Assembly (NCBI GenBank): GCA_041622435.1
Contig: JBFJYU010000012.1
Coordinates: forward strand, 1 to 23,434
Origin: Thermoplasmatota archaeon
Lineage (GTDB): Archaea; Thermoplasmatota; E2; JACPAO01; JAHFTW01
Reading direction: 5' to 3'
DNA: 23,434 bases
The notes under the pieces are model-generated. The model was given only the letters and a program-made list of their open reading frames with translations, was not told the DNA's origin and did no database searches. A program made the position numbers and the translations under genes. Of the stretch, positions 1,469 to 23,434 are shown piece by piece; the stretch's first letter is position 1, and each line of letters begins with the position of its first letter.

Positions 1469-1701
1469 GGCGAAAACCCAGCGGGCCGTCAGGCCCAAAC
1501 GAGTTTCGTTCACAGGGGCGGTTAAGGGTTCGCATGGCGCTCCTGGCGGGCCGGTCCTTACGGCTGTGCCAGCATAAGGCACTTCAAGCAGGAGACCTAG
1601 CAGGGTTTGAGCGCCTACCCGGAGAGCCCACCTGTTGGGCACGCCCCCGAGCTCTCCGCGTGACCGCCTCCCCCGCAAGGGGGGCACAGCACATCGATCC
1701 C

Positions 1702-3087
1702 ATGCAGTCTCTTGCCAAGCCCACGACGCCCGCCACGGTTTCCTACAAACCGTTTGACCTGCGGAACTTCCGCTCGATACCGCAGGTGAAGGAGCGGTTG
1801 TCCGAGGCCGACATGTTCGAAATCGAGGTCGTCGGACACGTCTTTCCCTTCAAGACGAACAATTACGTCATCGACGAATTGATCGACTGGGAAAACGTTC
1901 CCAACGACCCGATGTTTGCACTGACTTTTCCTCAGCGTAGAATGCTCCGGGAAAGCCATTACAACCGTATGGCCGAAGCCATGCGGGAGCGCCCCGACGA
2001 CGCCCAGTACCTGCTGGATGTCGCCAACGAGATTCGGCACCAGTTGAACCCGCATCCGGCCGGCCAACTGGAGCACAACGTCCCCGAATTGTACGGCGAG
2101 CCGCTTGAGGGAATGCAGCACAAGTACAACGAGACGGTGCTCTTTTTCCCCAGCCAGGCACAAACCTGCCACGCCTACTGCACCTTTTGTTTCCGCTGGC
2201 CGCAATTTGTCGGCCTTGACGATTTGAAGTTCCAGACGAAGGAAATTGAGAACCTCATTTGTTACCTCGAGGAACATCCCGAAGTGTCAGATATCCTGTT
2301 CACCGGTGGGGACCCCATGGTGATGGGGCCTCGCCTGATTCGCACCTACCTCGGCGCAATTACGGAGGCGCGCCACGCGGGGCGAATTCCCAACATCTCC
2401 ACCATTCGCATCGGTTCCAAGAGTCTGACCTACTGGCCGTACAAGTACGTCACAGACGCCGGCGCGGACGAGGTCCTTGACACGTTCCGTGATGTGGTTG
2501 ACAGCGGCATCCACCTGGCTTTTATGGCGCACTTCAACCACCCCGTGGAGTTGTCGACGCCCGTCGCTGTCGAGGCGATCCGTCGCATCCGCGATACGGG
2601 CGCCCAGATTCGCAGCCAGACGCCGCTGTTGCGCAACATCAACGCTGACCCGGAAGTGTGGGCCGCCAAGTGGCGCCGCGAGGTCGAGTTGGGCGTCATC
2701 CCGTACTACATGTTCGTTGTCCGTGACACCGGCGCGCAGCATCACTTTGGTGTTCCGCTCGTCGAGGCGCACGACATTTTCAGGAAGGCGTACCAGAAGG
2801 TCAGCGGGCTGGCGCGCACCGTGCGCGGGCCGTCCATGAGCGCCGACCCCGGCAAGGTCGAAGTCCTTGGGCCGACCGTTGTGGCCGGCCGGAAGGTGCT
2901 GGCGCTGCGGATGCTTCAGGGTCGCAACCCGGACTGGGTCGCGCGGCCGTTCTTTGCCGAGTACGACGAGGACGCCTTGTGGCTGGATGAGTTGAAGCCC
3001 GCGTTCGAGTCGCGGTTTTTCTTCGAGCCCGAGATGGCCAAGCTGGATGCCCCCGAGGCGGACGGCGCCGCGGCCGCCCCTGCATAG
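1702..3087 (+). CDS. KamA-family radical SAM protein (lysine 2,3-aminomutase-like aminomutase), ~461 aa
   Basis: ORF 1534..3087 trimmed to the ATG at 1702. CHAYCTFCFRW is the CxxxCxxC radical-SAM cluster motif in KamA context, and LFTGGDP corresponds to the KamA PLP/SAM region. The VIPYYMF and NHP motifs resemble lysine 2,3-aminomutase. The exact substrate (lysine, glutamate, beta-lysine or other) cannot be read from sequence. Confidence 0.8.
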   Translation: MQSLAKPTTPATVSYKPFDLRNFRSIPQVKERLSEADMFEIEVVGHVFPFKTNNYVIDELIDWENVPNDPMFALTFPQRRMLRESHYNRMAEAMRERPDDAQYLLDVANEIRHQLNPHPAGQLEHNVPELYGEPLEGMQHKYNETVLFFPSQAQTCHAYCTFCFRWPQFVGLDDLKFQTKEIENLICYLEEHPEVSDILFTGGDPMVMGPRLIRTYLGAITEARHAGRIPNISTIRIGSKSLTYWPYKYVTDAGADEVLDTFRDVVDSGIHLAFMAHFNHPVELSTPVAVEAIRRIRDTGAQIRSQTPLLRNINADPEVWAAKWRREVELGVIPYYMFVVRDTGAQHHFGVPLVEAHDIFRKAYQKVSGLARTVRGPSMSADPGKVEVLGPTVVAGRKVLALRMLQGRNPDWVARPFFAEYDEDALWLDELKPAFESRFFFEPEMAKLDAPEADGAAAAPA

Positions 3088-3119
3088 GTAGGGCTCCGCG
3101 GCTGGCGCCGCCGGCGGGC

Positions 3120-3746
3120 TCACTTGACGGGCACCGACTTGGCCCTGGCACGGGCGGGCTTGTGGAGGTTGACTTCCAGGCTCAGCACACCGTTCTCATA
3201 CGTGGCCGACGTGCGCTCGGGGTCCAGGTGGACTCCGGGTGAGCAGGTGGCGAGGTACTTCTGGCCGTCGCCCTCCCCTTCAATCTCGATGGTGTCACCG
3301 GCGACCTGGACCTTGATGCGGTCCTTGTCAACCCCCGGCATCTCGGCTCGCACGTTCAGTGTCCGGCGCTTCTCGTCCAACCGCCACGTCAGAAACGGTT
3401 CCCGCCAGCCTTCCTCGAGCGCGGCCAGGCTTTGCCCAAGGCTGCCAAACGGCTGGAAGACCGGCCGGCCATGGGGGCCCGGCTGTAGCGACAGGCCGTG
3501 CATCAGAGGCAGCCCGATCCAGTCGTGCCCTTCGGTGAAGGCCTCCTGGAGCAGGCGGTCCATGCGTCGCTCCATCTCGTGCAGGGCAGTCTCAAACGGC
3601 CGAAACACATCCCGGTAATGGTCGAGTTCGGCGCCGCTTGGCGCGGCCGGGACGGCGGGTGTCGCCTTTTCCGGTTTCGAGCGCGCTGGCTTGCGTGCCT
3701 TGGCCGGCCCGGATTCGGTTTTGCTGGACGGCTTGGATTTGGCCAT
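3120..3746 (-). CDS. Hsp20/alpha-crystallin small heat-shock protein with a ~45-aa basic K/P/A-rich N-terminal tail
   Basis: The alpha-crystallin domain is visible: WRLDEKRRTLNVRAEMPGVDKDRIKVQVAGDTIEIEGE...YENGVLSLEVNL. The ATG at 3746 is preceded by GAGGTGA (3753..3759, minus strand) with a 6-nt spacer. The N-terminus MAKSKPSSKTESGPAKARKPARSKPEKATPAVPAAP is low-complexity and basic. Confidence 0.75.
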   Translation of the reverse strand: MAKSKPSSKTESGPAKARKPARSKPEKATPAVPAAPSGAELDHYRDVFRPFETALHEMERRMDRLLQEAFTEGHDWIGLPLMHGLSLQPGPHGRPVFQPFGSLGQSLAALEEGWREPFLTWRLDEKRRTLNVRAEMPGVDKDRIKVQVAGDTIEIEGEGDGQKYLATCSPGVHLDPERTSATYENGVLSLEVNLHKPARARAKSVPVK

Positions 3747-6340: not shown

Positions 6341-7387
6341 ATGAAGCTGGTTGGCCTTGCTCTCCTGATCCTGATGATGGCGACCGTCGCCGGATGCCTG
6401 AATGACTCCAGCGCGCCCGAGGATGCCGCAGAGGACCCGCAGCCGGGCCTTCGATTCCTTGTCATCGGCGACCAGGGCACCGGCGGACCGGACCAGGCCA
6501 AGGTGGCCGAGGCGATGGCCCAGGTGTGTGAGAAGCGCGGCTGCGACTTCGTGATCACCAACGGCGACAACATCTACGAAGCCGGCGTGGACGGCCCGGA
6601 TGACCCGCGCTTCGAGCGCCAGTTCGAGGAGCCCTACTCCGGCATGGACCTGCCCTTCTACCTGACGCTCGGCAACCACGACAACGACATGACCCCCGTC
6701 CACGCGGCCGCCGACACAGACGCCGGCGGCGGGCTCGGCGTCTGGGGCGCCGCCGGCGACCACCAGGTCGCCTACACGTTCCGTGAAGACCGCACGAGCG
6801 ACAAGTGGAACATGCCTGCGCGCTACTACACGTTCAGCCTTGCTGGCGCCGATGGCACGTCGGCCCAGTTCATCGCCCTGGACACGTCGCCGTTCCTGTG
6901 GGACGGCATGCCGCCCCTGTACGATGACATGCTCGTCGAGGACCAGATCGCGTGGGCCACCGAGACGGTCGGCGAACCCAACGGCACGTGGCGCTTCAGC
7001 TTCGGCCACCACCCTTACCGCTCCAACGGCCAGCACAACGACGCCGGCAGCTACGACGGGTTTACCACGGGCGCGCCCGCCGGCGAGCGGTTGAAGGCGT
7101 TCTACGAGGAGGTGCTGTGCGACCAGATGGACATCTTCTTCGCCGGGCACGACCACGATCTGCAATGGCTGGAGCCGCGCGAGGAGTGCGGCAAGACACA
7201 GTTCATCGTCAGCGGCGCGGCCGGCAAAACGCGCCCGCTGGCCCAGTCCAACAACCCGGCCTATTACGAACAGGGCAGCATCCTGGGCTTCATGTGGGTC
7301 GAGTTGGAGGGCGACACCTTCCGGGGCGCCTTCTTCGACGCCGACGGCCGCATGCTCTATGCCCGCAGCTTCACCCGGGAGGCATGA
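6341..7387 (+). CDS. Calcineurin-like metallophosphoesterase, exported lipoprotein, very acidic
   Basis: The lipoprotein signal MKLVGLALLILMMATVAGC has a lipobox Cys. Metallophosphatase motifs GDQG, GDNIYE, GNHDN and GHDHD are present. The ATG at 6341 is preferred over the TTG at 6311 because it yields a canonical signal peptide. Confidence 0.75.
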   Translation: MKLVGLALLILMMATVAGCLNDSSAPEDAAEDPQPGLRFLVIGDQGTGGPDQAKVAEAMAQVCEKRGCDFVITNGDNIYEAGVDGPDDPRFERQFEEPYSGMDLPFYLTLGNHDNDMTPVHAAADTDAGGGLGVWGAAGDHQVAYTFREDRTSDKWNMPARYYTFSLAGADGTSAQFIALDTSPFLWDGMPPLYDDMLVEDQIAWATETVGEPNGTWRFSFGHHPYRSNGQHNDAGSYDGFTTGAPAGERLKAFYEEVLCDQMDIFFAGHDHDLQWLEPREECGKTQFIVSGAAGKTRPLAQSNNPAYYEQGSILGFMWVELEGDTFRGAFFDADGRMLYARSFTREA

Positions 7388-10702: not shown

Positions 10703-11482
10703 CTACTTGGACATGCCCAACGCCTTGAGCAATTCCACGGGCAACGGAATGACGACGGTCGTCCCCTTGTTGTCCGCGGCATTTTGGAGCGTTTGCAGCA
10801 TCCTCAGGAACATCGCGCCCGGCGACTCGGCCATGACGGCGGAGGCCTCGCCGAGCTTCTGCGCCGCCTGGAATTCGCCCTCCGCGGTGATGACGCGGGC
10901 ACGGCGCTCGCGCTCCGCCTCGGCTTGGCGAGCCATGGCGCGGCGCATGTCGGCGGCCAGTTCGACGTCCTTGATCTCGACCATTCCGACCTTGATGCCC
11001 CAGGGGTCGGTGGCGGCGTCGATGACCTCCTGCAATTTTTTGTTGAGTTTCTCGCGCTCGGCCAACAATTCGTCGAGGTCCGCCTGCCCGACGACGCTGC
11101 GCAGGCTCGTTTGGGCGATCTGGCTCGTGGCAATGCCGAAGTGTTCGACTTCAATGATGGCCCGGATGGGGTCGAGGACGCGGAAGTAGACGACCGCGTT
11201 GACGGATACGGGCACGTTGTCGTGGGTGATGATTTCCTGAACCGGCACGTCATGGGTGATGGTTCGCAGGTCCACCTTCACCATCTTGTCGAGCACCGGG
11301 ATGACGAAGAACAGCCCGGGGCCCTTGGCGCCGAGGAGCCGACCCAGGCGGAAAATGACGCCTCGCTCGTACTCCTTCACGATCTTGATCGCGGAAAACA
11401 GGAAGGCGACCACGAGCAGGACGACCACGATGGCCACGAACGCCGCCGTGGGACTGAGCGCCAGGAGCACGGGAGATGCCAT
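10703..11482 (-). CDS. Stomatin/prohibitin-family SPFH (band 7) membrane protein
   Basis: An N-terminal hydrophobic anchor precedes the SPFH core (GVIFRLGRLLGAKGPGLFFVIPVLDKMVKVDLR, VPVQEIITHDNVPVSVNAVVYFRV) and a C-terminal coiled-coil (RQAEAERERRARVITAEGE). The start is either ATG 11482 or ATG 11515, the full tracked ORF. Confidence 0.85.
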   Translation of the reverse strand: MASPVLLALSPTAAFVAIVVVLLVVAFLFSAIKIVKEYERGVIFRLGRLLGAKGPGLFFVIPVLDKMVKVDLRTITHDVPVQEIITHDNVPVSVNAVVYFRVLDPIRAIIEVEHFGIATSQIAQTSLRSVVGQADLDELLAEREKLNKKLQEVIDAATDPWGIKVGMVEIKDVELAADMRRAMARQAEAERERRARVITAEGEFQAAQKLGEASAVMAESPGAMFLRMLQTLQNAADNKGTTVVIPLPVELLKALGMSK

Positions 11483-11605
11483 GCCCTCCAAAACGATCGG
11501 GTGCTGATGAACCATCTGATCTAGCCCAGCCGCCGTTCAGCGGGACGCGACGCTTTTCCCCACGGGCCCCATGCCGTGCTTGTGACCCGGAATTGGCGGC
11601 TCGCC

Positions 11606-11992
11606 ATGGCACTCGTTGCCCTCGCTCTGGCTCCCGGGGCGGCGGCGCACGGAACCCATGTTGAGGACGGCGCCGGGTACGAGGTTTGGTGGGGGCTGCC
11701 CAGCCACGTTTACATCCACCTGGACGGGGCAACGTTTGCGGCGCTGGCGCAGCCCGGAAGCGGTTGGGCGCTGGCGTGGGACCTCGCGGCACCCATCGAG
11801 GAGGCGCTGGTGCGGGAACACGCGGCGCGGCCGGCGGGAGCGTGGTACTGTGACGGCGACCCCGGATATGTTCAGCCGCTGCCCTGCCGCCTGCGGGTCG
11901 CCATCGAACTGCAGGCCCATGTGAACGCTGGCGACGCCGACGTCCATTTCGATCGCTACTTCGGCTATGCCGGCGCCCTGCCGCTTGGCTAG
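11606..11992 (+). CDS. Small secreted protein of unknown function (~128 aa, 2 Cys)
   Basis: The signal peptide MALVALALAPGAAAHG is followed by a hydrophilic acidic mature region. GC3 is high. No recognisable domain. The start is taken as ATG 11606; the tracked ORF begins at an upstream GTG. Confidence 0.45.
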   Translation: MALVALALAPGAAAHGTHVEDGAGYEVWWGLPSHVYIHLDGATFAALAQPGSGWALAWDLAAPIEEALVREHAARPAGAWYCDGDPGYVQPLPCRLRVAIELQAHVNAGDADVHFDRYFGYAGALPLG

Positions 11993-12040
11993 CCCGGACA
12001 GCCCCAAGAGCCACGACGGGTGCTGTTTTGGATAGTCAGA

Positions 12041-12060
12041 GCCCGTGATATTTTTTTCAT
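12041..12060. promoter_or_regulatory. AT-rich island (GTGATATTTTTTTCATTG) in otherwise ~68% GC DNA; candidate TATA/-10 promoter element or oligo-T terminator
   Basis: A T7 run at 12051..12057 is seen in the sequence. It lies 30-50 nt upstream of the 12089 start and about 50 nt downstream of the 11992 stop. Confidence 0.35.
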
Positions 12061-12088
12061 TGCGGCCTCTCCGGTTCCGAGGTCCAAC

Positions 12089-12394
12089 ATGAACCCACTA
12101 GCCAAGCTGCTGCTGGTCGTGCTGCTGGCGCCGCCGGCGGCCGCCGATCCCGTCGAGGATGCCGAACAGATCACGTACGACTGTCGCACGATGCTGGCGG
12201 TGTATCCGCCCCGCGACCAATGCGTCGTCGAAGGGCGCGGCGTTGCCTGCGTCACGCAACTCGGCCCCACCTACGCACTGCGCTGCTGGCTCGTCGGCGT
12301 CGATTGCCACGGCAGCCACTGGCACGCGACCGTCGGGCCCACGCACGTGGCCGGCCAGAACACATGCCATCATGCCATCCGAGTCACGCCCTAG
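12089..12394 (+). CDS. Small secreted Cys/His-rich protein (~101 aa, 6 Cys, His cluster CHGSHWH...TCHH)
   Basis: GAGGT at 12079..12083 lies 5 nt before ATG 12089. The signal peptide MNPLAKLLLVVLLAPPAAADP has an AAA-D cleavage-site style shared with the next gene. Six Cys fall in about 75 mature residues. Confidence 0.55.
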   Translation: MNPLAKLLLVVLLAPPAAADPVEDAEQITYDCRTMLAVYPPRDQCVVEGRGVACVTQLGPTYALRCWLVGVDCHGSHWHATVGPTHVAGQNTCHHAIRVTP

Positions 12395-12484
12395 ATCCGG
12401 CGGGCGCGCTGCGCCGTGCAACCATTCGAGGTGGGGACCACCACGTTTTAGGACGACGCGCAGTTTGCAAATCGAGGTTGGAAA

Positions 12485-12781
12485 ATGAAAACTGTAGCCC
12501 TTCTGATCCTTGCCACCATGCTCGCCGTACCCGGCGCCGCGGCAGACGAGGACCCGTGCGAAACCGGCTTGGACGGCGCCGCCATTGTCGTCTGCCGCGG
12601 ACCCACCGACGAGGGCATCGGATGCGTCGCCCGTGCTGACGGCTGGACCGGGGCCGGCTGCGGCCTCGTCGGCTTCAACTGTTTCTCCGTGATCTGGGGC
12701 ATCCACAACAACGTGATCAGCGTCGGCGGGTACAGCTCATGCCAGGCCGGTGTGTTCGTCAACGTGCCGCCGACCGGGTGA
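12485..12781 (+). CDS. Small secreted Cys-rich protein (98 aa, 6 Cys)
   Basis: GAGGT at 12474..12478 lies 6 nt before ATG 12485. The signal peptide is MKTVALLILATMLAVPGAAADEDP. Six cysteines are spaced through the ~75-aa mature region, with Gly-rich loops. Confidence 0.6.
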   Translation: MKTVALLILATMLAVPGAAADEDPCETGLDGAAIVVCRGPTDEGIGCVARADGWTGAGCGLVGFNCFSVIWGIHNNVISVGGYSSCQAGVFVNVPPTG

Positions 12782-12887: not shown

Positions 12888-15113
12888 ATGGCCGTGAAAA
12901 TCCCGCGCGTATTGCGTGCCCTCGCCCTCGCTGCCCTGCTGGGAGCAACGGGTGTTGCCGCCGCCGGATTCTTCGGCGACGCCTACGGCTCCGTCCCGGG
13001 AACGTGGGAGTTGCCGCCGCTCGAGTATGGTGCCAGCGGCGAGTACGCCGTACAAGGGTTCAACAGGACGCCCGGCGGCGAATTCGTGCCGATTGGTCCG
13101 ACCGCCCGCGGCCTTGAATACCGCAATCCCGCGCCGGAGTGGATTCTGGACGCTTCGGGGCAGCCCCGGCTGGCTTCCGGCGTCGAATCCACCATTTACG
13201 GCTACGTTGATCGAACCGTCGATTTCGATGACGCCGAGCCCACCTGGGCGCCCAAGTGGACAATGCGGGTCCTGGAGGCCGACGGCGACACGGTCGCGAC
13301 GCAAATCAGCATGGCCTTCGCCTCGGCGGACCGCAACGAATCGCTCGTGGAGGCGGCCGGCCAGCCATTGGTCAGCCACATCGCGCGTGGAACCCGGAAC
13401 GTGACCGCAACCACCTACGCCGACGCGTCCCCGCCGGCGTTCAGGACCTGCGGCCTCGTGAACCCGTACCAGGGCTCGCGGGCCCCCCTCGGCCGGACCG
13501 TCGACCTAGGGAACTGCCTCATTGCGGCGACCCACTCGTTGGGCTCCGCCCAAGGCGGAAATGGCACCGTCGCCGGAGCCCTGCTGGTGGTCGCTCGGCC
13601 CTTCGACATCAAGGGCACCCAGGCCATCGATGGCGAACGCGCCCTTGCCCTGGAAACCTCCACAACGATCCATGGAGCTCGCGTCGTGGTGCGGCTGTGG
13701 CTGACCCAGGAATCCCCCGTGCCGGTGCGGATGGTGACGATTGCGGATGACTGGGCCGTCGTGCTAAGCCTTGCGGGCACCCATCAAGCCGCGCCCGACC
13801 GACCCGGGCCCGCGCCAGAGGCGGCTCCAGGCCTCACGTGGGCGCCGCGCCAGCCGTGGGGCCCAGACGACTCCGATGCCGATCATTTCTTCCCGGCGTC
13901 CCAGGCGTGGGCGGCCGCCATGGAGGACGCCCGGGTTGCCGCCTATTTTGATGCCCACCCGAAGGCCGTCGCCGCGAGGATGCATGGGACCGAACACGAA
14001 TTCACGGACCGCCAGCGCGTGACGTGGCAGTTTCGCGTGACCGATGGCATGGAACCGTTCGTTTTCTCGGTGGATGTGGACGAGCGCCCACTGCTGGGGA
14101 TGTACCTGGAAGAACATACCGGCATCCCGGACCCCGCCTGGGATCCCGACGTGGAAGTCACGATCCACGAGCAGGATTATGCCCCGCTGCCGCCCCCCGA
14201 AACGTTACCCGACGTCCTCCCGACCGTAGGCTCGATCGCGAAGCTTCGGGCATCCTACTCGGGCGTCGATGGAGCCTCGCCCGAATGGGAATTCACGGCG
14301 GAGTGCCAGGACTTGCCCTGCGTGCGTAGCGAGTGGCTGGTTGCCGCGAGCCGCAAGGCGGTCAACCAAACCATCGAGCCCCACGCCACCCAGGGCCACG
14401 TCCAGATCGATACGGCATCGAAATCCAGCACGTTCAACGTCCACGGAGACGGCCACCGCAGCCTTTTCGTTTCGGACGGATCGAGCCGGAGCCAGGTCGC
14501 CCCGTCCCCGCTGGCGGCAGGCCGCGCACCAAGCGCCCCGGCCGCGGAAGCGCCCGCCTGGTCGCCCCCCAGCGTGGCGGTGGCCGCCGCGACAGGCCTC
14601 GCCGCCTTGGTCGCGGGGTTGCTTTACTACCTGTGGCCCCAAGTGAAGGCGGTCGGCATTGGCTTGTTCAGCCGGATGGGTCAGCAGGAAATCGTGGACC
14701 ACCCCGTGCGGCGGCACCTGCTTGCCGCCGTGGAGGCTGATCCTGGCATCCACTTCCAAGAGTTGGTTCGCCGGGTGGGTGTTGGTCGCAGCAGCGTCGA
14801 TCACCACCTGCGCCACTTGGAATCCCGTGGGCTCATCGTGCGCCGACTGACCCAAGGCTACGCGTGCTTCGCTCCAAGGGGGACCGATCGCCGAGTGCTC
14901 GCTGGCGCCGGAGCGATTCGGTCCAGCGGCGCCCGCGCCGTGCTCGCCGCCATCGAGGCCGCCCCCGGTGCCTCCATCGCCGACACCGCTCGGGCAACGG
15001 GCCTGGAGCGGTCCACGGCCCACCACCACGTCCAGCGCCTTACCGAGGCGGGACTGGTGGAGCGCCGCCGGGACGGGCGAGCGGTCCGACTGTGGCGGGT
15101 GCGGCCGGCGTAA
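12888..15113 (+). CDS. Membrane-anchored transcription regulator: signal peptide + ~530-aa acidic extracytoplasmic domain + one TM helix + two C-terminal winged-helix (ArsR/MarR-like) DNA-binding domains (~742 aa)
   Basis: ORF 12750..15113 trimmed to the ATG at 12888 (MAVKIPRVLRALALAALLGATGVAAAG). The TM helix is VAVAAATGLAALVAGLLYYLW near the C-terminal quarter. Two HTH units follow: HFQELVRRVGVGRSSVDHHLRHLESRGLIVRR and SIADTARATGLERSTAHHHVQRLTEAGLVERRRDGRAVRLWRV. The ectodomain has no motif I can recognise. Confidence 0.7.
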   Translation: MAVKIPRVLRALALAALLGATGVAAAGFFGDAYGSVPGTWELPPLEYGASGEYAVQGFNRTPGGEFVPIGPTARGLEYRNPAPEWILDASGQPRLASGVESTIYGYVDRTVDFDDAEPTWAPKWTMRVLEADGDTVATQISMAFASADRNESLVEAAGQPLVSHIARGTRNVTATTYADASPPAFRTCGLVNPYQGSRAPLGRTVDLGNCLIAATHSLGSAQGGNGTVAGALLVVARPFDIKGTQAIDGERALALETSTTIHGARVVVRLWLTQESPVPVRMVTIADDWAVVLSLAGTHQAAPDRPGPAPEAAPGLTWAPRQPWGPDDSDADHFFPASQAWAAAMEDARVAAYFDAHPKAVAARMHGTEHEFTDRQRVTWQFRVTDGMEPFVFSVDVDERPLLGMYLEEHTGIPDPAWDPDVEVTIHEQDYAPLPPPETLPDVLPTVGSIAKLRASYSGVDGASPEWEFTAECQDLPCVRSEWLVAASRKAVNQTIEPHATQGHVQIDTASKSSTFNVHGDGHRSLFVSDGSSRSQVAPSPLAAGRAPSAPAAEAPAWSPPSVAVAAATGLAALVAGLLYYLWPQVKAVGIGLFSRMGQQEIVDHPVRRHLLAAVEADPGIHFQELVRRVGVGRSSVDHHLRHLESRGLIVRRLTQGYACFAPRGTDRRVLAGAGAIRSSGARAVLAAIEAAPGASIADTARATGLERSTAHHHVQRLTEAGLVERRRDGRAVRLWRVRPA

Positions 15114-15139: not shown

Positions 15140-15446
15140 CTTCGCGCTAAGCGCTCAGCACGTGTTGCACGGCTCGGAGAACCTTCCACTCACCCTTCGC
15201 ACGGCCCTGCAAGCAGGGCCGCAGTCCCGCCGACTGGGCGTTCTTGCCTTCGCGGTCCGCTTCTCGTGGCTATGCGCCGAGAACCTTTTGGACCGCTCGC
15301 AAGACCTTCCACTCGTCCCTCATACGGCCGTGCAAGCACGGCCCCAGTCGCGACGAGTTCACGCGCTGGGCGCCCAGCGTGACGCCGGTTACGCCGACAT
15401 CACGCGCTGAACAGCACGCAAGACCTTCCACTCGTCGGGCATATAG
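15140..15446. repeat. Degenerate direct-repeat array of ~120-bp period (3 units). Each ~65-75-bp repeat core carries a 7-bp-stem/4-nt-loop hairpin. The third unit is the 3' coding end of the E1-beta gene.
   Basis: accttccactc occurs at 15181, 15304 and 15423. Core A (15176..15240) and core B (15298..15372) are ~80% identical. Their hairpins are ggccCtg-caag-caGggcc (15203..15220) and ggccGtg-caag-caCggcc (15326..15343), differing by a compensatory pair. A perfect 16-bp palindrome cgctgggcgcccagcg sits at 15364..15379. The 20 nt cgcaagaccttccactcgtc are shared exactly between unit B and the E1-beta C-terminal codons (DEWKVLR). Confidence 0.75.
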
Positions 15447-16375
15447 TAGTGCTCCCGCGCGAACAGCGGCGTGTGCACGTCGGGGGCGGTGACCCGCTCC
15501 ACGGGGGCCTCGAGGTGGTAGAACGCGTCCTCGTTGATGCGGGCGACGATCTCGCCGGCAAGGCCGCCGGTGCGTGGTGCTTCCTGGACGATGACACAGC
15601 GGCCGGTTCGCTTGACCGACTCGATGATCGGTTCGGAATCCATCGGGCTGACGGTCTGCAAATCCAGCACGTCGGCCTCGATGCCGTTGTCCGCCAGGGT
15701 GGCCGCGGCCTTGTCGGTGAAATACCGCATCGCGCCCCAGGTCACCAGGGTGAGGTCGTCGCCTTCGCGCACGTGGGCGGTCTTGCGCAGATCCGGCACC
15801 TCGTCGTCCACGGGGACGTCCTCACGATACTTCCGGTACAGGAACTTGGGCTCCATGAAAATCACGGGGTCGTCGCTGCGAATGGACGCCTTGAGCAGCC
15901 CACGGGCGTTGCGAGGCGTGCTCGGCATGACGACCGTCAGGCCCGGCGTGTGGGCCCAGTACATCTCGCGGCTCTCCGAGTGGTGCTCCAGGGCGTGCAC
16001 GCCGGCGCCGTAGGGCATGTGGATCACCATGGGCAGCTTGAAGCCGCCCTGGGTGCGCTTGAGCATGCGCGCCATATGGCTCTCGTAATGGTGGTGAGCC
16101 TGGTAGCTGAAGCCACTGAACTGCATCTCCCCGATGGGGCGCATGCCGGCCATGGCGAGGCCAGTGGCCGCACCCGCGATGCCCATCTCGCTGATCGGCG
16201 TGTCCACGACGCGGTGCTTGCCGTACTTGTCCATGAGCCCGTCGGTGAGACGGAAGATACCGCCGTCCTTGCCCACGTCCTCGCCTAGGATCATGACCTT
16301 CTCGTCGCGCTCCATTTCCTCATCGAACGCCCGGTTCATGGCCTCGATCAGGTTGACGCTGATGGTTTCGCCCAT
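15389..16375 (-). CDS. 2-oxoacid dehydrogenase E1 component beta subunit (TPP-dependent; pyruvate/branched-chain/acetoin-type), ~328 aa
   Basis: The transketolase-like beta-subunit sequence is present (ILGEDVGKDGGIFRLTDGL, DTPISEMGIAGAATGLAMAGMRPI, C-terminal transketolase C domain). ATG 16375 shares one base with the TGA of the alpha gene (TGATG). GGAGGTG lies 6 nt upstream (cacctcc at 16381..16387 on the plus strand). Confidence 0.9.
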   Translation of the reverse strand: MGETISVNLIEAMNRAFDEEMERDEKVMILGEDVGKDGGIFRLTDGLMDKYGKHRVVDTPISEMGIAGAATGLAMAGMRPIGEMQFSGFSYQAHHHYESHMARMLKRTQGGFKLPMVIHMPYGAGVHALEHHSESREMYWAHTPGLTVVMPSTPRNARGLLKASIRSDDPVIFMEPKFLYRKYREDVPVDDEVPDLRKTAHVREGDDLTLVTWGAMRYFTDKAAATLADNGIEADVLDLQTVSPMDSEPIIESVKRTGRCVIVQEAPRTGGLAGEIVARINEDAFYHLEAPVERVTAPDVHTPLFAREHYYMPDEWKVLRAVQRVMSA

Positions 16376-17663: not shown

Positions 17664-19100
17664 CTATGTCTGGGGTTCTTGGCCCGGACCCGGTGGGCGA
17701 ACCCCGGCCCCCGCGTCAGCGGCAGACCCCGAGTCGGCAGGGCGGCTACCCTCGGCACCGGCACCCGCGTCAGCGTCGGCGAAGGATTCCTCCACCACGG
17801 GCCTGACAGTCAGCCGCAGGTCCTCGCGGTGGACGACCTCAACCGCAGCACCCGCAGGAACCGGCGGCCCATCCGCATCCTCCAGGTGCGCCGTCCACAC
17901 CTCGCCGCGCAGGGTCACCCGGCCCTCGGGCTGCAGGTCCTCCAGGACCCGGGCGCGCTCGCCGACGAGCCCAACGCGGGTCGGCAGCTTGCGGGCCTTC
18001 AAGGCCACGGTCACGGCACCAAACGTGATGGCGCCGCTGGTGACGGCCGCCGCCAGCCCGACGATGAAGAACGTCTGCAAGAACGACGCCGGCAACAACG
18101 GCTCATCCAACAGGAAAACGGCGCCGAGGGCCAAGGCAATCACGCCCACGATGGTCAGGACCCCGTGCGTCGGCGTAAACACCTCAGCGACGAAGAAAAT
18201 CCCGGCCACCGCCAGCAACAAGACCCCCGCCGTCGACGTGCTGAACAAACCCAGGCCGATGATGCCCAGCAACAGCATCAGCGCCCCGATGGTCTCGGGA
18301 ACGTAGGTGCCCGGGTTGGCCAGCCCAAAGATCAGCGCGTAAAGGCCGACCAGGAACAAGATGAACGACACCTGCGGGTTGCCAATGATGTCGACAAGCC
18401 CCGCCAGCGCGCCACGCTCGTACGTCACGATGCGCGCGTTCTCGGTGTCCAGCAGCCACGTGCCGTCGGCCACGTTGGCCCGGCTGCCGTGGACGCTGCG
18501 AATGAACGACGCCACGTCGCGGTCCAGGTACTCCACCATGCCGGTGTCGATGGCCTCGTCGGCCTCAAGGTTGAGGTTCTCGGTGATGAACCGCTCGGCC
18601 ACGTCGGGGTCACGGTCGTGCCGCTCGGCGATCGCCCGCATGCGCTCCACGAGGAAATTCTTCACCTTGTCATCGGCCGGCTGGGTCGAGCCGTCGGGCG
18701 ACGACTGGATCGGCTGCGCCGACCCAATGGTCGTTCCCGGAACCATGCCACTCGGGTGGCCCATGAGCAAAATGAACGTGCCCGCCGAGGCCGCAAAGCC
18801 CCCTCGCGGACCGACGAAGGTCAGCACCGGCACCGTACTGCGCGAGATGGCGCGATCGATGTCGAGGGTTGCATCCACCAGCCCACCCGGCGTGTCCAAC
18901 TGGATCACGAGCGGCACGCCGCGGGCCTCCGCCTCGCCGAGGGCATCCTCAATGTGAATCAGCGTTCCACGCGTGACGACGCCGGTCACGTTGACCAGCA
19001 AAACCTCGTGGCTTCCCCCGGATACCGGCGCCATGGGCGCGGCCAGCATGAGCAGCAGCCCCAGCAGGACGAATCGCCGTCGCACGGCACGACAGCCCAC
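17664..19100 (-). CDS. NfeD-family membrane-bound ClpP-class serine protease (long form: periplasmic protease domain + multi-TM region + C-terminal OB-fold domain), 478 aa
   Basis: The signal peptide is followed by a ClpP-like core (VIQLDTPGGLVDATLDIDRAI...GGFAASAGTFILLMG, a Ser/Lys dyad context), then 4-5 hydrophobic helices, then the C-terminal RVGLVGERARVLEDLQPEGRVTLRGEVWTAHLED, typical of the NfeD OB domain. The GTG start at 19100 is as in the ORF track. Confidence 0.85.
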   Translation of the reverse strand: MGCRAVRRRFVLLGLLLMLAAPMAPVSGGSHEVLLVNVTGVVTRGTLIHIEDALGEAEARGVPLVIQLDTPGGLVDATLDIDRAISRSTVPVLTFVGPRGGFAASAGTFILLMGHPSGMVPGTTIGSAQPIQSSPDGSTQPADDKVKNFLVERMRAIAERHDRDPDVAERFITENLNLEADEAIDTGMVEYLDRDVASFIRSVHGSRANVADGTWLLDTENARIVTYERGALAGLVDIIGNPQVSFILFLVGLYALIFGLANPGTYVPETIGALMLLLGIIGLGLFSTSTAGVLLLAVAGIFFVAEVFTPTHGVLTIVGVIALALGAVFLLDEPLLPASFLQTFFIVGLAAAVTSGAITFGAVTVALKARKLPTRVGLVGERARVLEDLQPEGRVTLRGEVWTAHLEDADGPPVPAGAAVEVVHREDLRLTVRPVVEESFADADAGAGAEGSRPADSGSAADAGAGVRPPGPGQEPQT

Positions 19101-19171: not shown

Positions 19172-20812
19172 CTAGAGGATCCGGATCTGCTTGCCAACCG
19201 AGGGCGTACCGTTCTCGTCAAGCACAAAGATGTGGTACCAGCCCGGGGGCGCAATGGTCGGGCCCGACGGGGAGGAGACGATCAGGTCATCGCCCTGCAA
19301 CTCAAAGTCGAGTTCCAGGAAGCGCTGGTCGTAGAACATCGAGTGCGTGCTTGTGCCCATGCGGATCATGGTGACCCGCGCGATATCCCCGGCGTCGGGG
19401 CTCGCCACGGTGAAGAGCTCATCGTGGATGACGACCTCGGGCGCGGCCAGGATTTCGGGGCGGCTGGCGGCGAACATGTACGGCGGGTAGTAGACCTCCG
19501 ACGTGTGCTGGTTGAGGTCGGTTTCCTTCGTCGTTTCGATGTCGCTGCCGGCCACCAGGACGCGGCCGTCGGGCAACAGGACGCTGGTGGAGTGGTACGT
19601 GCGGCCGCGCTGGTGGCTCGCCGCCGGCAGCCAGGACATGGTTTCGGGGTCAAACACCTCGGCCACAAGGGTCGCGGGGTACTTGTCCGACTCGGGCGTA
19701 TAAATCGGAATGTCGAAGCCGCCGACGCGCCGGGGCAAAACGGCGCCACCGCTGACGAAGATCTTGCCGTCGGGCATGTAAACCGCCGTCACGTCGCGGC
19801 GGGCCGTCGCCATCTGGGCCACCGGCTCGAACGAGGGTTCGTCGCCGCTCAGGTCCAGAAGTTCGGTGTTGTACGCCCACAACTCGGCGCGGGCGCCGCC
19901 ACCAATGATGAGGATCTTGTCAAGGCTCGGCAGCAGCACGGAGGTGCCGCCGTCGCGGTAGCTGCCCTTCGTGAAGGGACCGTCGGACCAGGTCCACGTC
20001 TCGGTGTCCAGGAACATGATGCGGGCGTCGGGGCCGGCGCGAACGACGTCGCCGTCGGGCATCAGGTGGACCCAAGGATAGAGCTGCGACACGATGTCGG
20101 CGCTGGGGATGTGCTCCCATTCGGCGGCGCCGGGGCGCAGGATCTCGAACATCTCGTTGATGTTGACATCGAAGTCGGTGCCGGAGAACGTGATCACGGA
20201 GCCGTCGGCCAGGGTCAGGACCGCGGGGTACCAGCGGCCGCGCTCCATGGCGGGGCCCTGCTCCCAGGTCTCGGTCCACGGATCGAAGAACCACGTGTAC
20301 GGAGCGCCCGAGGCGCCACGCGAGCCTTCCGTGTGCGTGCCGCCGACGAGGAACGCGCGGCCGTCAGGCATGACGACGTGGCCGACGCAGAAGATGTTGA
20401 TCTCCTCGTCGCTTCCCTCCAGGGTCGGGGGCGCGACGCGCTCGGTGGCGCCGGTCGCGGGGTCGATGAGATAAATGAAGCTGCGGATTTCCCAGGCCAG
20501 GATCTTGCCCGTGGGCAGGAGGACCTGGTGGATCGCCTTGAAGGGCCATTCGACGGGGTCAGTCCAGGCGCCGACCATAGCCGCCTCGGGGCCGGCCAAG
20601 AGGTCGCCCTGGAACAGGAACTGGCCCTCGTAGTGGGCGCCGTGGCCGCCGAACAAGTCCGCGTGAAGACCCATCAGCTGGCTCTCGTCGCCCTCTTCGT
20701 CGTGACCCGACACCGATGTCAGCAGGCCGGACACGGTGACCATCATCGCTGCGGCAAGCAGGACCCTGCCGCGGCGTGGTGTTCCTTCCGACGATTTGAC
20801 CCTAAAACTCAT
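19172..20812 (-). CDS. Secreted galactose-oxidase-like copper radical oxidase family protein (kelch beta-propeller + C-terminal DUF1929/E-set domain), 546 aa
   Basis: The N-terminal signal peptide is followed by kelch-like blades (repeated GG..LPDG / DG..F..GG units). The C-terminus IRMGTSTHSMFYDQRFLEL...GWYHIFVLDENGTPSVGKQIRI closely parallels the galactose oxidase C-terminal domain (IRYGTATH..DQRRIPL ... GYWMLFVMNSAGVPSV..IRV). Confidence 0.75.
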   Translation of the reverse strand: MSFRVKSSEGTPRRGRVLLAAAMMVTVSGLLTSVSGHDEEGDESQLMGLHADLFGGHGAHYEGQFLFQGDLLAGPEAAMVGAWTDPVEWPFKAIHQVLLPTGKILAWEIRSFIYLIDPATGATERVAPPTLEGSDEEINIFCVGHVVMPDGRAFLVGGTHTEGSRGASGAPYTWFFDPWTETWEQGPAMERGRWYPAVLTLADGSVITFSGTDFDVNINEMFEILRPGAAEWEHIPSADIVSQLYPWVHLMPDGDVVRAGPDARIMFLDTETWTWSDGPFTKGSYRDGGTSVLLPSLDKILIIGGGARAELWAYNTELLDLSGDEPSFEPVAQMATARRDVTAVYMPDGKIFVSGGAVLPRRVGGFDIPIYTPESDKYPATLVAEVFDPETMSWLPAASHQRGRTYHSTSVLLPDGRVLVAGSDIETTKETDLNQHTSEVYYPPYMFAASRPEILAAPEVVIHDELFTVASPDAGDIARVTMIRMGTSTHSMFYDQRFLELDFELQGDDLIVSSPSGPTIAPPGWYHIFVLDENGTPSVGKQIRIL

Positions 20813-21791: not shown

Positions 21792-22403
21792 CTAGTGGGG
21801 CTCGGCGCCGTACTCGCTGAGGGCTGCCTGGATGATGCGCCCAAGCACCACGTTGGTTTCGGGAACGTTCCAGTAGGCAATGCGTTGCTTCAGTTCCTCG
21901 ATGGCGCTGACGTACAACCCATACACCGCTGGCTCCCTCAACTTGACGTACGGCATCGCGAGGCCGAGCCGGGCCAGGCCCGCGCACGCCGCGTCGTCGT
22001 AGATCGGGTAGGCCTGGTGGATGTGGTGGAGGATGCGGCTCAGCGCCGACAGCGTCAGGCCCGGCACGGCGCGCAGGCGCCCAAGCGGACCGACGTCCGG
22101 GTAATGGATGGGGTCGAGCAAACCGATGGCGTCAGCGGCGGCCTGGTCCGTCCACGTTGGACGCCGCATGCCATAGGCGTCGGTGATGCGTTCAAGGCTC
22201 GCGCGATCCAAGGGGTGCTCGATGGTGTAAAGCAACTCCTGGTACGCGTGGTCCTGCCGGCGCGCCGCCGCCTCGTAGAGACCCGGCACCCGCGCGAAGA
22301 ACGCCGCCACCGCGCCGCCCTGGAAGCCGACGCCAGAGACAGCTTGCGCCACCCGACCGGCCGACCTAGGCCGCCGCGGGGAGCCAGCGTTGACAGAATC
22401 CAT
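21792..22403 (-). CDS. Hypothetical protein (~203 aa) translationally coupled to the upstream BoxB-like gene
   Basis: ORF 21792..22442 with the likely start ATG 22403, which forms an ATGA overlap with the BoxB-like stop. GC3 is high. No motif recognised. Confidence 0.5.
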   Translation of the reverse strand: MDSVNAGSPRRPRSAGRVAQAVSGVGFQGGAVAAFFARVPGLYEAAARRQDHAYQELLYTIEHPLDRASLERITDAYGMRRPTWTDQAAADAIGLLDPIHYPDVGPLGRLRAVPGLTLSALSRILHHIHQAYPIYDDAACAGLARLGLAMPYVKLREPAVYGLYVSAIEELKQRIAYWNVPETNVVLGRIIQAALSEYGAEPH

Positions 22404-23434
22404 CAAGCCGCCTTCGCCGCGATCCAATCCTGCTTGAAGCACTCCTCAAGGACCCCCGCATCCTCCGACGTCGGGAGCACCTCCGCCAGGTGATCAGCGT
22501 ACGAGCCACCCGACCAAGGCGTGCCATCAACCGTGAATTCACCCCCGGCGTACTCGCCGATGGCGCGGTTGAACCTGAAATCCGGCACCACGAGGCGCGG
22601 CTCGCCGTCGGGCACCTGCTGATTCAACAAGTGCACCTCGCGAACGATTTCGTCACGGTACTGGGCCCGGGCGCGCTCGTTCAAGTGCTTCTTGTCCACC
22701 GGCTCGCCCGCCGCCGCAGCCTCGGCCTCATCGTAGCGACCCTTGATGCCCCACACGTACGCCCACTCCGCCGAGCCCGACTCGTCCTTGCCAAACAAAT
22801 CAAACGCCGTCGGAATCCACTTGTTGAAATAGCGCTGCACCACCGGAATCGGAACCACGCCGGCCTTGACAATCCGGCGCAAACCATTGGCGCCCGTGCC
22901 CAAATGGAACGACTCCTCCTTCAGCATCGGCCCCATCGACGCCGCCAACGGCTTGAACGCCGACGTGGACAACATCTTGAGTTGATACTTGCCATCCCGA
23001 TCCACGAATTGTGTGAACGTAAAGAAATCCAGCCAATGGTCGCACGGCTCATTGAAGGAACCCAAAAGCCGCGTGCTCTGCTGGGCGTTGCGCTCCAGCA
23101 ACTTCTGCGCCTCCCGCGCCCCCGCATGACCAAAATGCTCCATTAAAACGTGACACATTTGCCACCCATGCCGCTGCTCCTCCGCCATGATGCGCAGCGC
23201 CGACTTTCGATCATACTCCGTCGGCGCCGACGCCAACAAATGACGCTGCTGCTCAACCGAAGCGAACTCCGTATCGCCCTGCACCGCAATCAAATGCAAC
23301 AACGCATCCCGAATGTTCTGATGCGGAATCTGCAACGGCCGCTCCCACTTCGGCCGCCCGGCGAAATCGCCGTACTCAATCTCCGGCGCCACATTCTCAT
23401 AATCGTACTTGGCCTCGAACGAGTAATCGCCCAA
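22403..23434 (-). CDS. BoxB-like diiron benzoyl-CoA oxygenase (benzoyl-CoA 2,3-epoxidase component B family). C-terminal ~343 aa; the N-terminus lies beyond the window end.
   Basis: AVQGDTEFASVEQQRHL, MAEEQRHGWQMCHVLMEHFG (an ExxH diiron ligand motif) and FNEPCDHWLDFFTFTQFVDRDGKYQL closely parallel conserved BoxB blocks (VTQGDTEPASVEQQRHL, EEGRHLW...HAHFG, FNEKTPDWLSFFMFTFITDRDGKFQL). The leading M in the track is a TTG artefact at the window edge. Confidence 0.6.
   Translation of the reverse strand: MGDYSFEAKYDYENVAPEIEYGDFAGRPKWERPLQIPHQNIRDALLHLIAVQGDTEFASVEQQRHLLASAPTEYDRKSALRIMAEEQRHGWQMCHVLMEHFGHAGAREAQKLLERNAQQSTRLLGSFNEPCDHWLDFFTFTQFVDRDGKYQLKMLSTSAFKPLAASMGPMLKEESFHLGTGANGLRRIVKAGVVPIPVVQRYFNKWIPTAFDLFGKDESGSAEWAYVWGIKGRYDEAEAAAAGEPVDKKHLNERARAQYRDEIVREVHLLNQQVPDGEPRLVVPDFRFNRAIGEYAGGEFTVDGTPWSGGSYADHLAEVLPTSEDAGVLEECFKQDWIAAKAA

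Follow-up and report, generated by a model that had tools for sequence, protein, structure and literature searches.

The window described here is a 23,434-nucleotide stretch (contig JBFJYU010000012.1 of assembly GCA_041622435.1, 67 % GC) from a Thermoplasmatota archaeon. Between 11.5 and 15.1 kb it carries four successive open reading frames (ORFs) on the + strand, orf1 to orf4. Judged from their sequences, the second and third encode members of an undescribed, rare and lineage-restricted family of exported mini-proteins. The conserved neighbour of the family genes is E1-beta, a 2-oxoacid dehydrogenase gene, and not the membrane-tethered regulator that adjoins them in the window. The four genes are:

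11576 (GTG) or 11606 (ATG) to 11992, + strand: orf1, orphan small secreted protein, 138 or 128 amino acids (aa)
12089 to 12394, + strand: orf2, divergent family paralogue, 101 aa
12485 to 12781, + strand: orf3, canonical family member, 98 aa
12867 or 12888 to 15113, + strand: orf4, membrane-tethered winged-helix protein, 748 or 741 aa

Using a profile built from mature orf2 and orf3, HMMER search was performed over 1.84 billion cluster representatives (E<=1e-3). Twelve proteins were retrieved, 11 of which are true members, the remaining one being a fibronectin-III repeat. All 11 true representatives have a signal peptide by inspection and contain one to three copies of a 65-80 aa domain. Its core is C-x4-W-G-[IV]-H-x5-[VIL]-G-G-x3-C, in longer form C-x-L-x-G-F-D-C-x-Q-x2-W-G-I-H-x5-V-G-G-x-N-G-C. 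The C5-x20-C6 spacing is invariant in all 23 domain copies and, together with C4 placed seven residues before C5, makes up the family scaffold, which is present in both orf2 and orf3. Most of the 23 copies contain 4 or 6 cysteines, and such an even number in an exported protein points to disulfides. Neither a catalytic partner domain nor a membrane anchor was found in tandem-domain members; orf2 and orf3 likewise have a Sec-type signal peptide without membrane anchor.

The original prediction, made from the window sequence alone, had recognised no family for the three small proteins and proposed profile searches of their mature sequences. These searches agree with it: orf1-orf3 match no family in Pfam, NCBIfam (E<=1), PHROGs or PADLOC and have no PDB sequence match above chance level. 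Pfam scan of 10 family members gave two sub-threshold noise matches only, the family profile has no credible match among PDB sequences at E<=10, and Rfam has no match in the window. Our literature search found nothing relevant on secreted cysteine-rich proteins of Thermoplasmatota. In a word-indexed search of 5.8 billion proteins, orf2 retrieved only a 99 % identical copy of itself and the family profile only the members P0003, P0014 and P0001.

Distribution of the family was examined with a degenerate DNA pattern for the core motif. Among 185,579 GTDB species genomes (one per species) the pattern occurs at 5 loci, all five titled "MAG: Thermoplasmatota archaeon" (MAG, metagenome-assembled genome), with no chance matches. 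The same pattern found one true member and two chance matches in JGI metagenomes. Since it detects exact-motif members only, this distribution is a lower bound. All named genome matches are Thermoplasmatota MAGs. In general kind the family is a familiar one, that of lineage-specific secreted cysteine-rich mini-proteins.

The two members in the window align with each other by BLASTP (29 % identity, E 1e-9) with four cysteines in register, and on this similarity they are tandem paralogues. The family hidden Markov model (HMM) detects orf2 at 1.3e-21, orf2 having been among the sequences that built it, and orf3 at 7.7e-26. Their parts are as follows, signal peptides being judged by sequence inspection and hydropathy:

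12089 to 12145, + strand: orf2 signal peptide, aa 1-19
12167 to 12391, + strand: orf2 domain, aa 27-101
12485 to 12544, + strand: orf3 signal peptide, aa 1-20
12542 to 12778, + strand: orf3 domain, aa 20-98, core sequence CGLVGFNCFSVIWGIHNNVISVGGYSSC

Predicted cleavage separates AAA from DPVE in orf2 and AAA from DEDP in orf3; an A-A-A end followed by H or D is found in all three small proteins, as had been noticed earlier. The six cysteines reported for each of the second and third proteins are also there, all within the mature part. Relative to C5 they lie at -41, -28, -19, -7, 0 and +20 in orf2 and at -41, -29, -19, -7, 0 and +20 in orf3. The full core motif is present in orf3 (CFSVIWGIHNNVISVGGYSSC). 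Of this motif only C, W, one G and C are left in orf2 (CHGSHWHATVGPTHVAGQNTC), which reads WHAT in place of WGIH and VAG in place of VGG, with all six cysteines and C-x20-C retained.

The two genes also differ in their divergence from the closest relative of the window, locus L002 (MAG Mix_sand11.2021.09.Z.89). Nei-Gojobori estimates were used, to be read with dS (synonymous divergence) near saturation and with strong codon bias: E1-beta is 90.5 % identical between the two genomes (dS 0.70, omega 0.08), orf3 and its orthologue P0003 are 73 % identical (dS 0.66, omega 0.34), and orf2 and its counterpart P0007 are 33-37 % identical (dN 0.77, dS 1.23, omega about 0.63). By these comparisons orf3 is the conserved copy, whose orthologue diverges along with the genome, and orf2 a fast-diverging duplicate that kept the cysteine scaffold, lost WGIH and VGG and gained histidines. 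It may be a neofunctionalising or a decaying duplicate.

To what use could such a domain be put? AlphaFold2 was run on mature orf3 with a 17-row family alignment. The model is confident (predicted local distance difference test, pLDDT, 89.5; predicted template modelling score, pTM, 0.71; four of five models at 80 or above) and shows seven beta strands, a predicted all-beta fold with no recognisable solved relative when the PDB is compared by sequence. After export and removal of the signal peptide, the domain would oxidise into a compact beta-meander with two or three disulfides. Outside the cell it would then serve as a stable module for binding or structure, its ligand being, for example, a component of the cell envelope or of the environment, with binding through the face that bears the invariant Trp, His and Gly-Gly (W-G-x-H / G-G). 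It would not be an enzyme, nor a ligand dedicated to orf4. We tentatively favour extracellular binding or structural modules as the role of the family, at somewhat less than an even chance. At a single locus, L004, the family gene P0009 is divergently adjoined, 85 bp apart, by a gene for a thioredoxin/AhpC-TSA-like lipoprotein (625-1170, - strand; lipobox LLAGC, active site WCSLC). This protein is a possible extracytoplasmic disulfide partner, which fits an oxidised extracytoplasmic protein.

Several points weigh against the proposed role. No known homologue gives a function, so that "binding module" derives from architecture and conservation pattern, and the members showed no anchor or partner domain from which the bound ligand could be told. 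Disulfide pairing and the surface position of W, H and GG are likewise deduced rather than read from the model coordinates. Tandem duplication and fast divergence are equally compatible with secreted toxins or competition factors. Finally, a regulator homologue stands beside the genes in both close genomes despite rearrangement, which could reflect a real functional link.

Among known small proteins, carbohydrate-binding or lectin-like mini-domains are likewise small and all-beta, with conserved Trp/His/Asn/Gly; they follow a signal peptide as tandem repeats, with no catalytic domain attached, and the likeness is one of analogy only. Archaeocins of the halocin C8 type are exported, roughly 8-kDa, disulfide-rich and very stable proteins of narrow phylogenetic range. 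The family shares this general character (small, exported, disulfide-rich, narrow range). It differs in having no sequence match in Pfam at E<=1, no precursor/immunity arrangement and no export genes, and in that a single protein may contain its domain two or three times. To both groups the resemblance is one of general character, and no mark of membership in either was found.

The members could alternatively be toxins of archaeocin-like kind, secreted for competition or antimicrobial action, whose duplication and divergence would reflect an arms race. They are small, secreted, disulfide-stabilised and of narrow lineage range; their tandem arrays contain divergent copies, with omega of 0.34-0.63 as against 0.08 for E1-beta; and in L002 an MNT/HepT toxin-antitoxin pair lies beside the family genes. 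In none of the loci, however, is an immunity gene, dedicated exporter or processing protease adjacent. The neighbours are SPFH, E1-alpha/beta, NfeD, thioredoxin-like, TspO, DUF4097 and RraA-like proteins, with no ABC exporter and no recognisable immunity protein among them. The chromosomal position beside core metabolism is stable across the clade, and two or three domain repeats per protein are unusual for bacteriocins. The sole match to a toxin family in Pfam, SMK killer-toxin beta subunit (E 0.073; 13.9 bits, the cut-off being 27), is sub-threshold noise. We regard a toxin role as unlikely, while granting it some weight.

We wondered whether the small proteins are linked to the regulator instead. 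The original prediction had described the adjoining gene as coding for a single-pass membrane protein with cytoplasmic winged-helix domains, which Pfam and hydropathy bear out. NCBI places the orf4 start at ATG 12867 (748 aa), an alternative being ATG 12888 (741 aa), from which residues are numbered here:

aa 8-30: signal or anchor, by hydropathy
about 530 aa: ectodomain, with no family match
14565 to 14636, + strand: transmembrane helix, aa 560-583, by hydropathy
14694 to 14891, + strand: winged helix-turn-helix (wHTH) 1, about aa 603-668, by Pfam
14937 to 15095, + strand: wHTH-2, about aa 684-736, by Pfam

Pfam matches in the C-terminal part are HTH_24 (1.8e-16), MarR_2 (7.8e-16) and HVO_0163_N (2.8e-13), each covering two stretches. 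The ectodomain has no NCBIfam match, and word-indexed homologue search with orf4 retrieved near-identical sequence only, its one database entry being orf4 itself, for which exact look-up gave no recorded contig. With this architecture orf4 would be a membrane-tethered one-component transcription factor, able to couple an outside signal directly to transcription.

The trio and orf4 had been proposed to form a co-conserved ligand/sensor module, with synteny in related genomes as the check. The contexts of 10 independent family loci were therefore compared (the window, L002, L003, L004, L005, L006, L008, L011, L012 and L013). Several loci are short (1.2-3.1 kb), and absence of the regulator there is weaker evidence; it is clear in L003, L004 and L005, where 6-8 kb could be read. 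Gene orders are:

Window: SPFH(-) / orf1, orf2, orf3, orf4 (+) / E1-beta(-), E1-alpha(-), NfeD(-)
L002: orf4 homologue (cut by contig end), P0007, P0003, MNT, HepT (+) / E1-beta(-), E1-alpha(-), NfeD(-)
L004: SPFH(-), thioredoxin-like lipoprotein(-), P0009(+), E1-beta(-), E1-alpha(-), NfeD(-)
L003 and L005: three large anchored secreted paralogues, small membrane protein, family gene (two good domains and one degenerate domain), E1-beta
L012: two-domain member convergent with E1-beta
L006, L008, L011, L013: other neighbours (acyl-CoA dehydrogenase, TspO, DUF4097 protein, RraA-like)

E1-beta is convergent with a family gene in six of the ten loci (window, L002, L003, L004, L005 and L012); the family gene has thus kept this position across the clade. 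Tandem arrays of family genes occur at four loci: the window, L002, L011 (three genes) and L013 (at least two). An orf4-like regulator stands beside a family gene in the window and in L002 only, and there is none next to the family genes of L003, L004, L005, L006, L008, L011, L012 and L013. At the further loci where a family gene adjoins E1-beta, no HTH protein of any sort is present. Even the two positive cases disagree in order, the regulator being upstream of the family genes in L002 and downstream of them in the window, where its place corresponds to that of the L002 MNT (NTP_transf_2)/HepT pair (2105-2766). The L002 regulator, a partial homologue cut by the contig end, is 41 % identical to orf4 with dS of about 1.9. 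Since dS is about 0.7 for E1-beta and orf3, simple orthology of the two regulators is improbable, although this comparison is indicative only.

Expression signals in the block were examined as well. The original prediction had reported GAGGT Shine-Dalgarno motifs at two of the three small genes, and these were found before orf2 and orf3, together with AT-rich boxes further upstream:

12079 to 12083, + strand: GAGGT Shine-Dalgarno of orf2, position -10
12474 to 12478, + strand: GAGGT Shine-Dalgarno of orf3, position -11
12046 to 12060, + strand: AT-rich box GATATTTTTTTCATT between orf1 and orf2, 30-40 nt upstream of the orf2 start
12444 to 12451, + strand: AT-rich box GTTTTAGG, 34-41 nt before the orf3 ATG, from spacer alignments

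Because this pentamer is rare in the window (0.00126 per base), two correctly placed copies are unlikely to arise by chance. Among 11 other genes checked, only E1-beta has a placed GAGGT, and orf4 has no Shine-Dalgarno at either candidate start. The box before orf3 also reads as CACGTTTTAGG, and in L002 the boxes CACGCTTTACC and CATGTTTTAGG precede P0003 and P0007 at about the same distance. All of them are conspicuous against the high GC content of the surrounding DNA. GATATTTTTTTCATT may be a TATA-like promoter element of archaeal type, an oligo-T terminator of orf1, or both, and the boxes before the small genes could generally be elements of these kinds. This suggests that the small genes and orf4 are separate transcription units rather than one operon. 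Scans for promoters and terminators of bacterial type, which are not applicable to archaea, found nothing.

Taken as diffusible ligands, co-sensors or metallophores, the small proteins would be detected by the orf4 ectodomain, and the winged-helix domains would control transcription. The topology of orf4 (ectodomain, one membrane helix, two cytoplasmic wHTH) suits such a role, the four genes share one strand and are spaced 85-106 nt apart, and in L002 the orf4 homologue is directly beside two family genes. Against this stand the absence of the regulator in eight of ten loci, the other side and far higher divergence (dS about 1.9 versus about 0.7) of the L002 regulator, and MNT/HepT at the orf4 position. 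In addition, orf1 is not conserved at all, and each small gene is preceded by an AT-rich box of its own, while orf4, without Shine-Dalgarno, is apparently expressed separately or leaderlessly. Lack of synteny with the regulator in relatives, which the original prediction had named as refuting, is largely what the comparison shows; the co-conserved module is not supported, and we consider it improbable that the small proteins serve as signals for orf4. Adjacency of orf4 would be recent and local to this sub-lineage, where a functional link is conceivable. At most orf4 would regulate the small genes, and it would not sense their products.

Different, probably paralogous regulators adjoin family genes in the two closest genomes. 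It is a long shot that proteins of the orf2/orf3 type are secreted signals or co-receptors docking on the ectodomains of such paralogous membrane-tethered winged-helix regulators. If true, archaea would have here their first one-component transcription system gated by a protein ligand, based on a new disulfide-stapled beta fold.

Bacterial ToxR and CadC consist of a cytoplasmic N-terminal OmpR-type wHTH, one transmembrane helix and a C-terminal periplasmic sensor. ToxR acts with a small co-encoded periplasmic partner, ToxS, which the ligand/sensor proposal resembles. Like these proteins, orf4 is a single polypeptide in which a DNA-binding winged-helix module is joined by one membrane helix to a large extracytoplasmic domain. 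Its order is reversed, with the ectodomain N-terminal and the HTH C-terminal; its two wHTH are of HTH_24/MarR/ArsR/TrmB type instead of a single OmpR-type one, and there is no sequence relation. Nor is a partner relationship conserved across genomes. By analogy orf4 may work similarly, while not being a member of this group.

Tethering of HTH transcription factors to the membrane is also described in archaea, for ArnR and ArnR1 of Sulfolobus acidocaldarius, membrane-bound transcription factors whose HTH is N-terminally placed (Bischof et al. 2019, PMC6396743, cited in PMC13286277). As far as they are portrayed there, they resemble orf4 in being archaeal and membrane-tethered and differ in having an N-terminal HTH, where orf4 has an N-terminal extracellular domain of about 530 aa and C-terminal tandem wHTH. 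Homology between them is claimed no further than generic HTH families.

Metal handling was the other function suggested for the second protein. Its histidine cluster is real: six histidines occur in CHGSHWH, TH and CHH, at the place of the family core, and they align with three successive strands of the orf3 model. The cluster is absent in the positional counterpart P0007 and in all other members, so that metal binding is not a family property; only in this copy does the cluster replace the WGIH core. Could the orf2 cluster, and perhaps the N-terminal histidine of orf1, still bind Cu, Zn or Ni extracellularly, the proteins acting as chaperones or scavengers? Concentration of histidines on three modelled strands, the HGTH beginning of predicted mature orf1 and one histidine nearly invariant across the family would agree with this. 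Conversely, besides the private nature of the cluster, no cupredoxin, CopC or other metal-binding match exists in Pfam or PDB, no metal transporter or resistance gene lies nearby in the window, and the even number of conserved cysteines in an exported protein points to disulfides. A role in metal handling is thus quite improbable.

Since high-GC DNA gives many spurious ORFs (the 8-kb stretch around the block is overlapped by 71 ORFs of 50 aa or more), coding potential was tested by codon-usage log-odds trained on 17 confident window genes. Values in bits per codon are 0.37-0.40 for orf1, 0.30 for orf2, 0.30 for orf3 and 0.29 for orf4, compared with 0.34-0.75 for housekeeping genes and at most 0.04 for all overlapping alternative frames. 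GC content by codon position agrees with these log-odds. By codon statistics orf1-orf4 are real genes, and the three successive same-strand small genes of the original prediction are upheld. That the small ORFs are chance products of high GC or decaying pseudogenes, as the abundance of spurious ORFs, the ambiguous GC-by-position pattern of orf1 against its antisense frame and the lost motif of orf2 might suggest, has next to no chance of being true and is largely refuted for orf2 and orf3 by the preferred frames, purifying selection on the orf3 orthologue, HMM detection of both, correctly placed Shine-Dalgarno motifs and the intact orf2 frame with its signal peptide and all six cysteines.

The first small gene stands apart from this pair. 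The three had been seen as one trio, which holds for the homologous orf2 and orf3, orf1 being related to neither: it shows no similarity to orf2 or orf3, and the family HMM does not match it. Its start is uncertain, as NCBI uses ATG 11606 and GTG 11576 or 11582 would add a charged n-region missing from the ATG form. The predicted signal peptide ends with AAA before HGTH, which gives histidine as predicted mature N-terminus, and the protein contains two cysteines. No homologue was found beyond a 99.7 % identical Logan contig (strain), and among PDB sequences there is only a chance-level match to an epimerase/dehydratase (E 0.81). We also considered that orf1 is a decayed fragment of an L002-type regulator; tblastx and blastn show no similarity. 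In sequence terms orf1 is an unrelated, strain-specific secreted orphan.

Downstream of orf4, the 3' end of E1-beta is stacked in tandem copies (15147-15475, - strand). Two extra copies lie after the orf4 stop and before the true stop of E1-beta (15389):

15147 to 15233, - strand: degenerate extra copy of the E1-beta 3' end
15270 to 15356, - strand: degenerate extra copy of the E1-beta 3' end

These direct repeats comprise the last ~30 codons of E1-beta, with a period of 119-123 nt and 76-78 % identity. Each extra copy encodes (D/G)EWKVLRAVQxVxxA and a stop, with a GC hairpin before it. L002 has three extra copies (2986-3440) and L003 one (6961-7047), matching its own variant DESKILAECRRIL. 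The copies mark the block boundary, lie outside the proteins and resemble the remains of repeated integration or duplication at the gene 3' end. The slot between the small-protein genes and these repeats has variable content, orf4 in one genome and MNT/HepT in the other. The idea of the block as a currently integrated element bounded by the repeats was dropped, as neither a distal copy nor an integrase was found in the window.

Some further observations concern the surroundings. In the window, SPFH/stomatin (10703-11515, - strand) and its usual operon partner NfeD (17664-19100, - strand) are separated by E1-alpha/E1-beta and the variable + strand block. The same split is seen in the more distant MAG of L004 (2-601 and 4111-5595). 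Beside the multi-domain family member, L003 (729-5191, - strand) and L005 (1850-6181, + strand) encode three paralogous secreted proteins of 430-490 aa. Their C terminus is a hydrophobic anchor closed by RRR, and they contain a His-rich motif, HEHDHHTEAV; Pfam scan of one of them gave no match. Elsewhere in the window, 1534-3087 (+ strand, 517 aa) and 21792-22442 (- strand, 216 aa) are well-supported coding ORFs with no Pfam match at E<=1e-5. Just beyond NfeD, 19172-20812 (- strand) encodes a 546-aa galactose-oxidase/glyoxal-oxidase-like Kelch protein with C-terminal E-set domain, an enzyme type uncommon for an archaeon.

The block is thus composed of two family genes at their ancestral E1-beta position, a strain orphan and a recently adjacent regulator, and its attractive but weakly founded reading as signal plus sensor is set aside. 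What is defined instead is an extracellular protein domain that had no earlier annotation; it belongs to uncultured Thermoplasmatota and has a signature simple enough for specific retrieval from genome collections. In practice this yields a candidate Pfam family and an object for structural and binding work, a modest gain. Lineage-specific secreted proteins of this kind are nonetheless among the few handles on how wall-less, uncultured archaea meet their surroundings.

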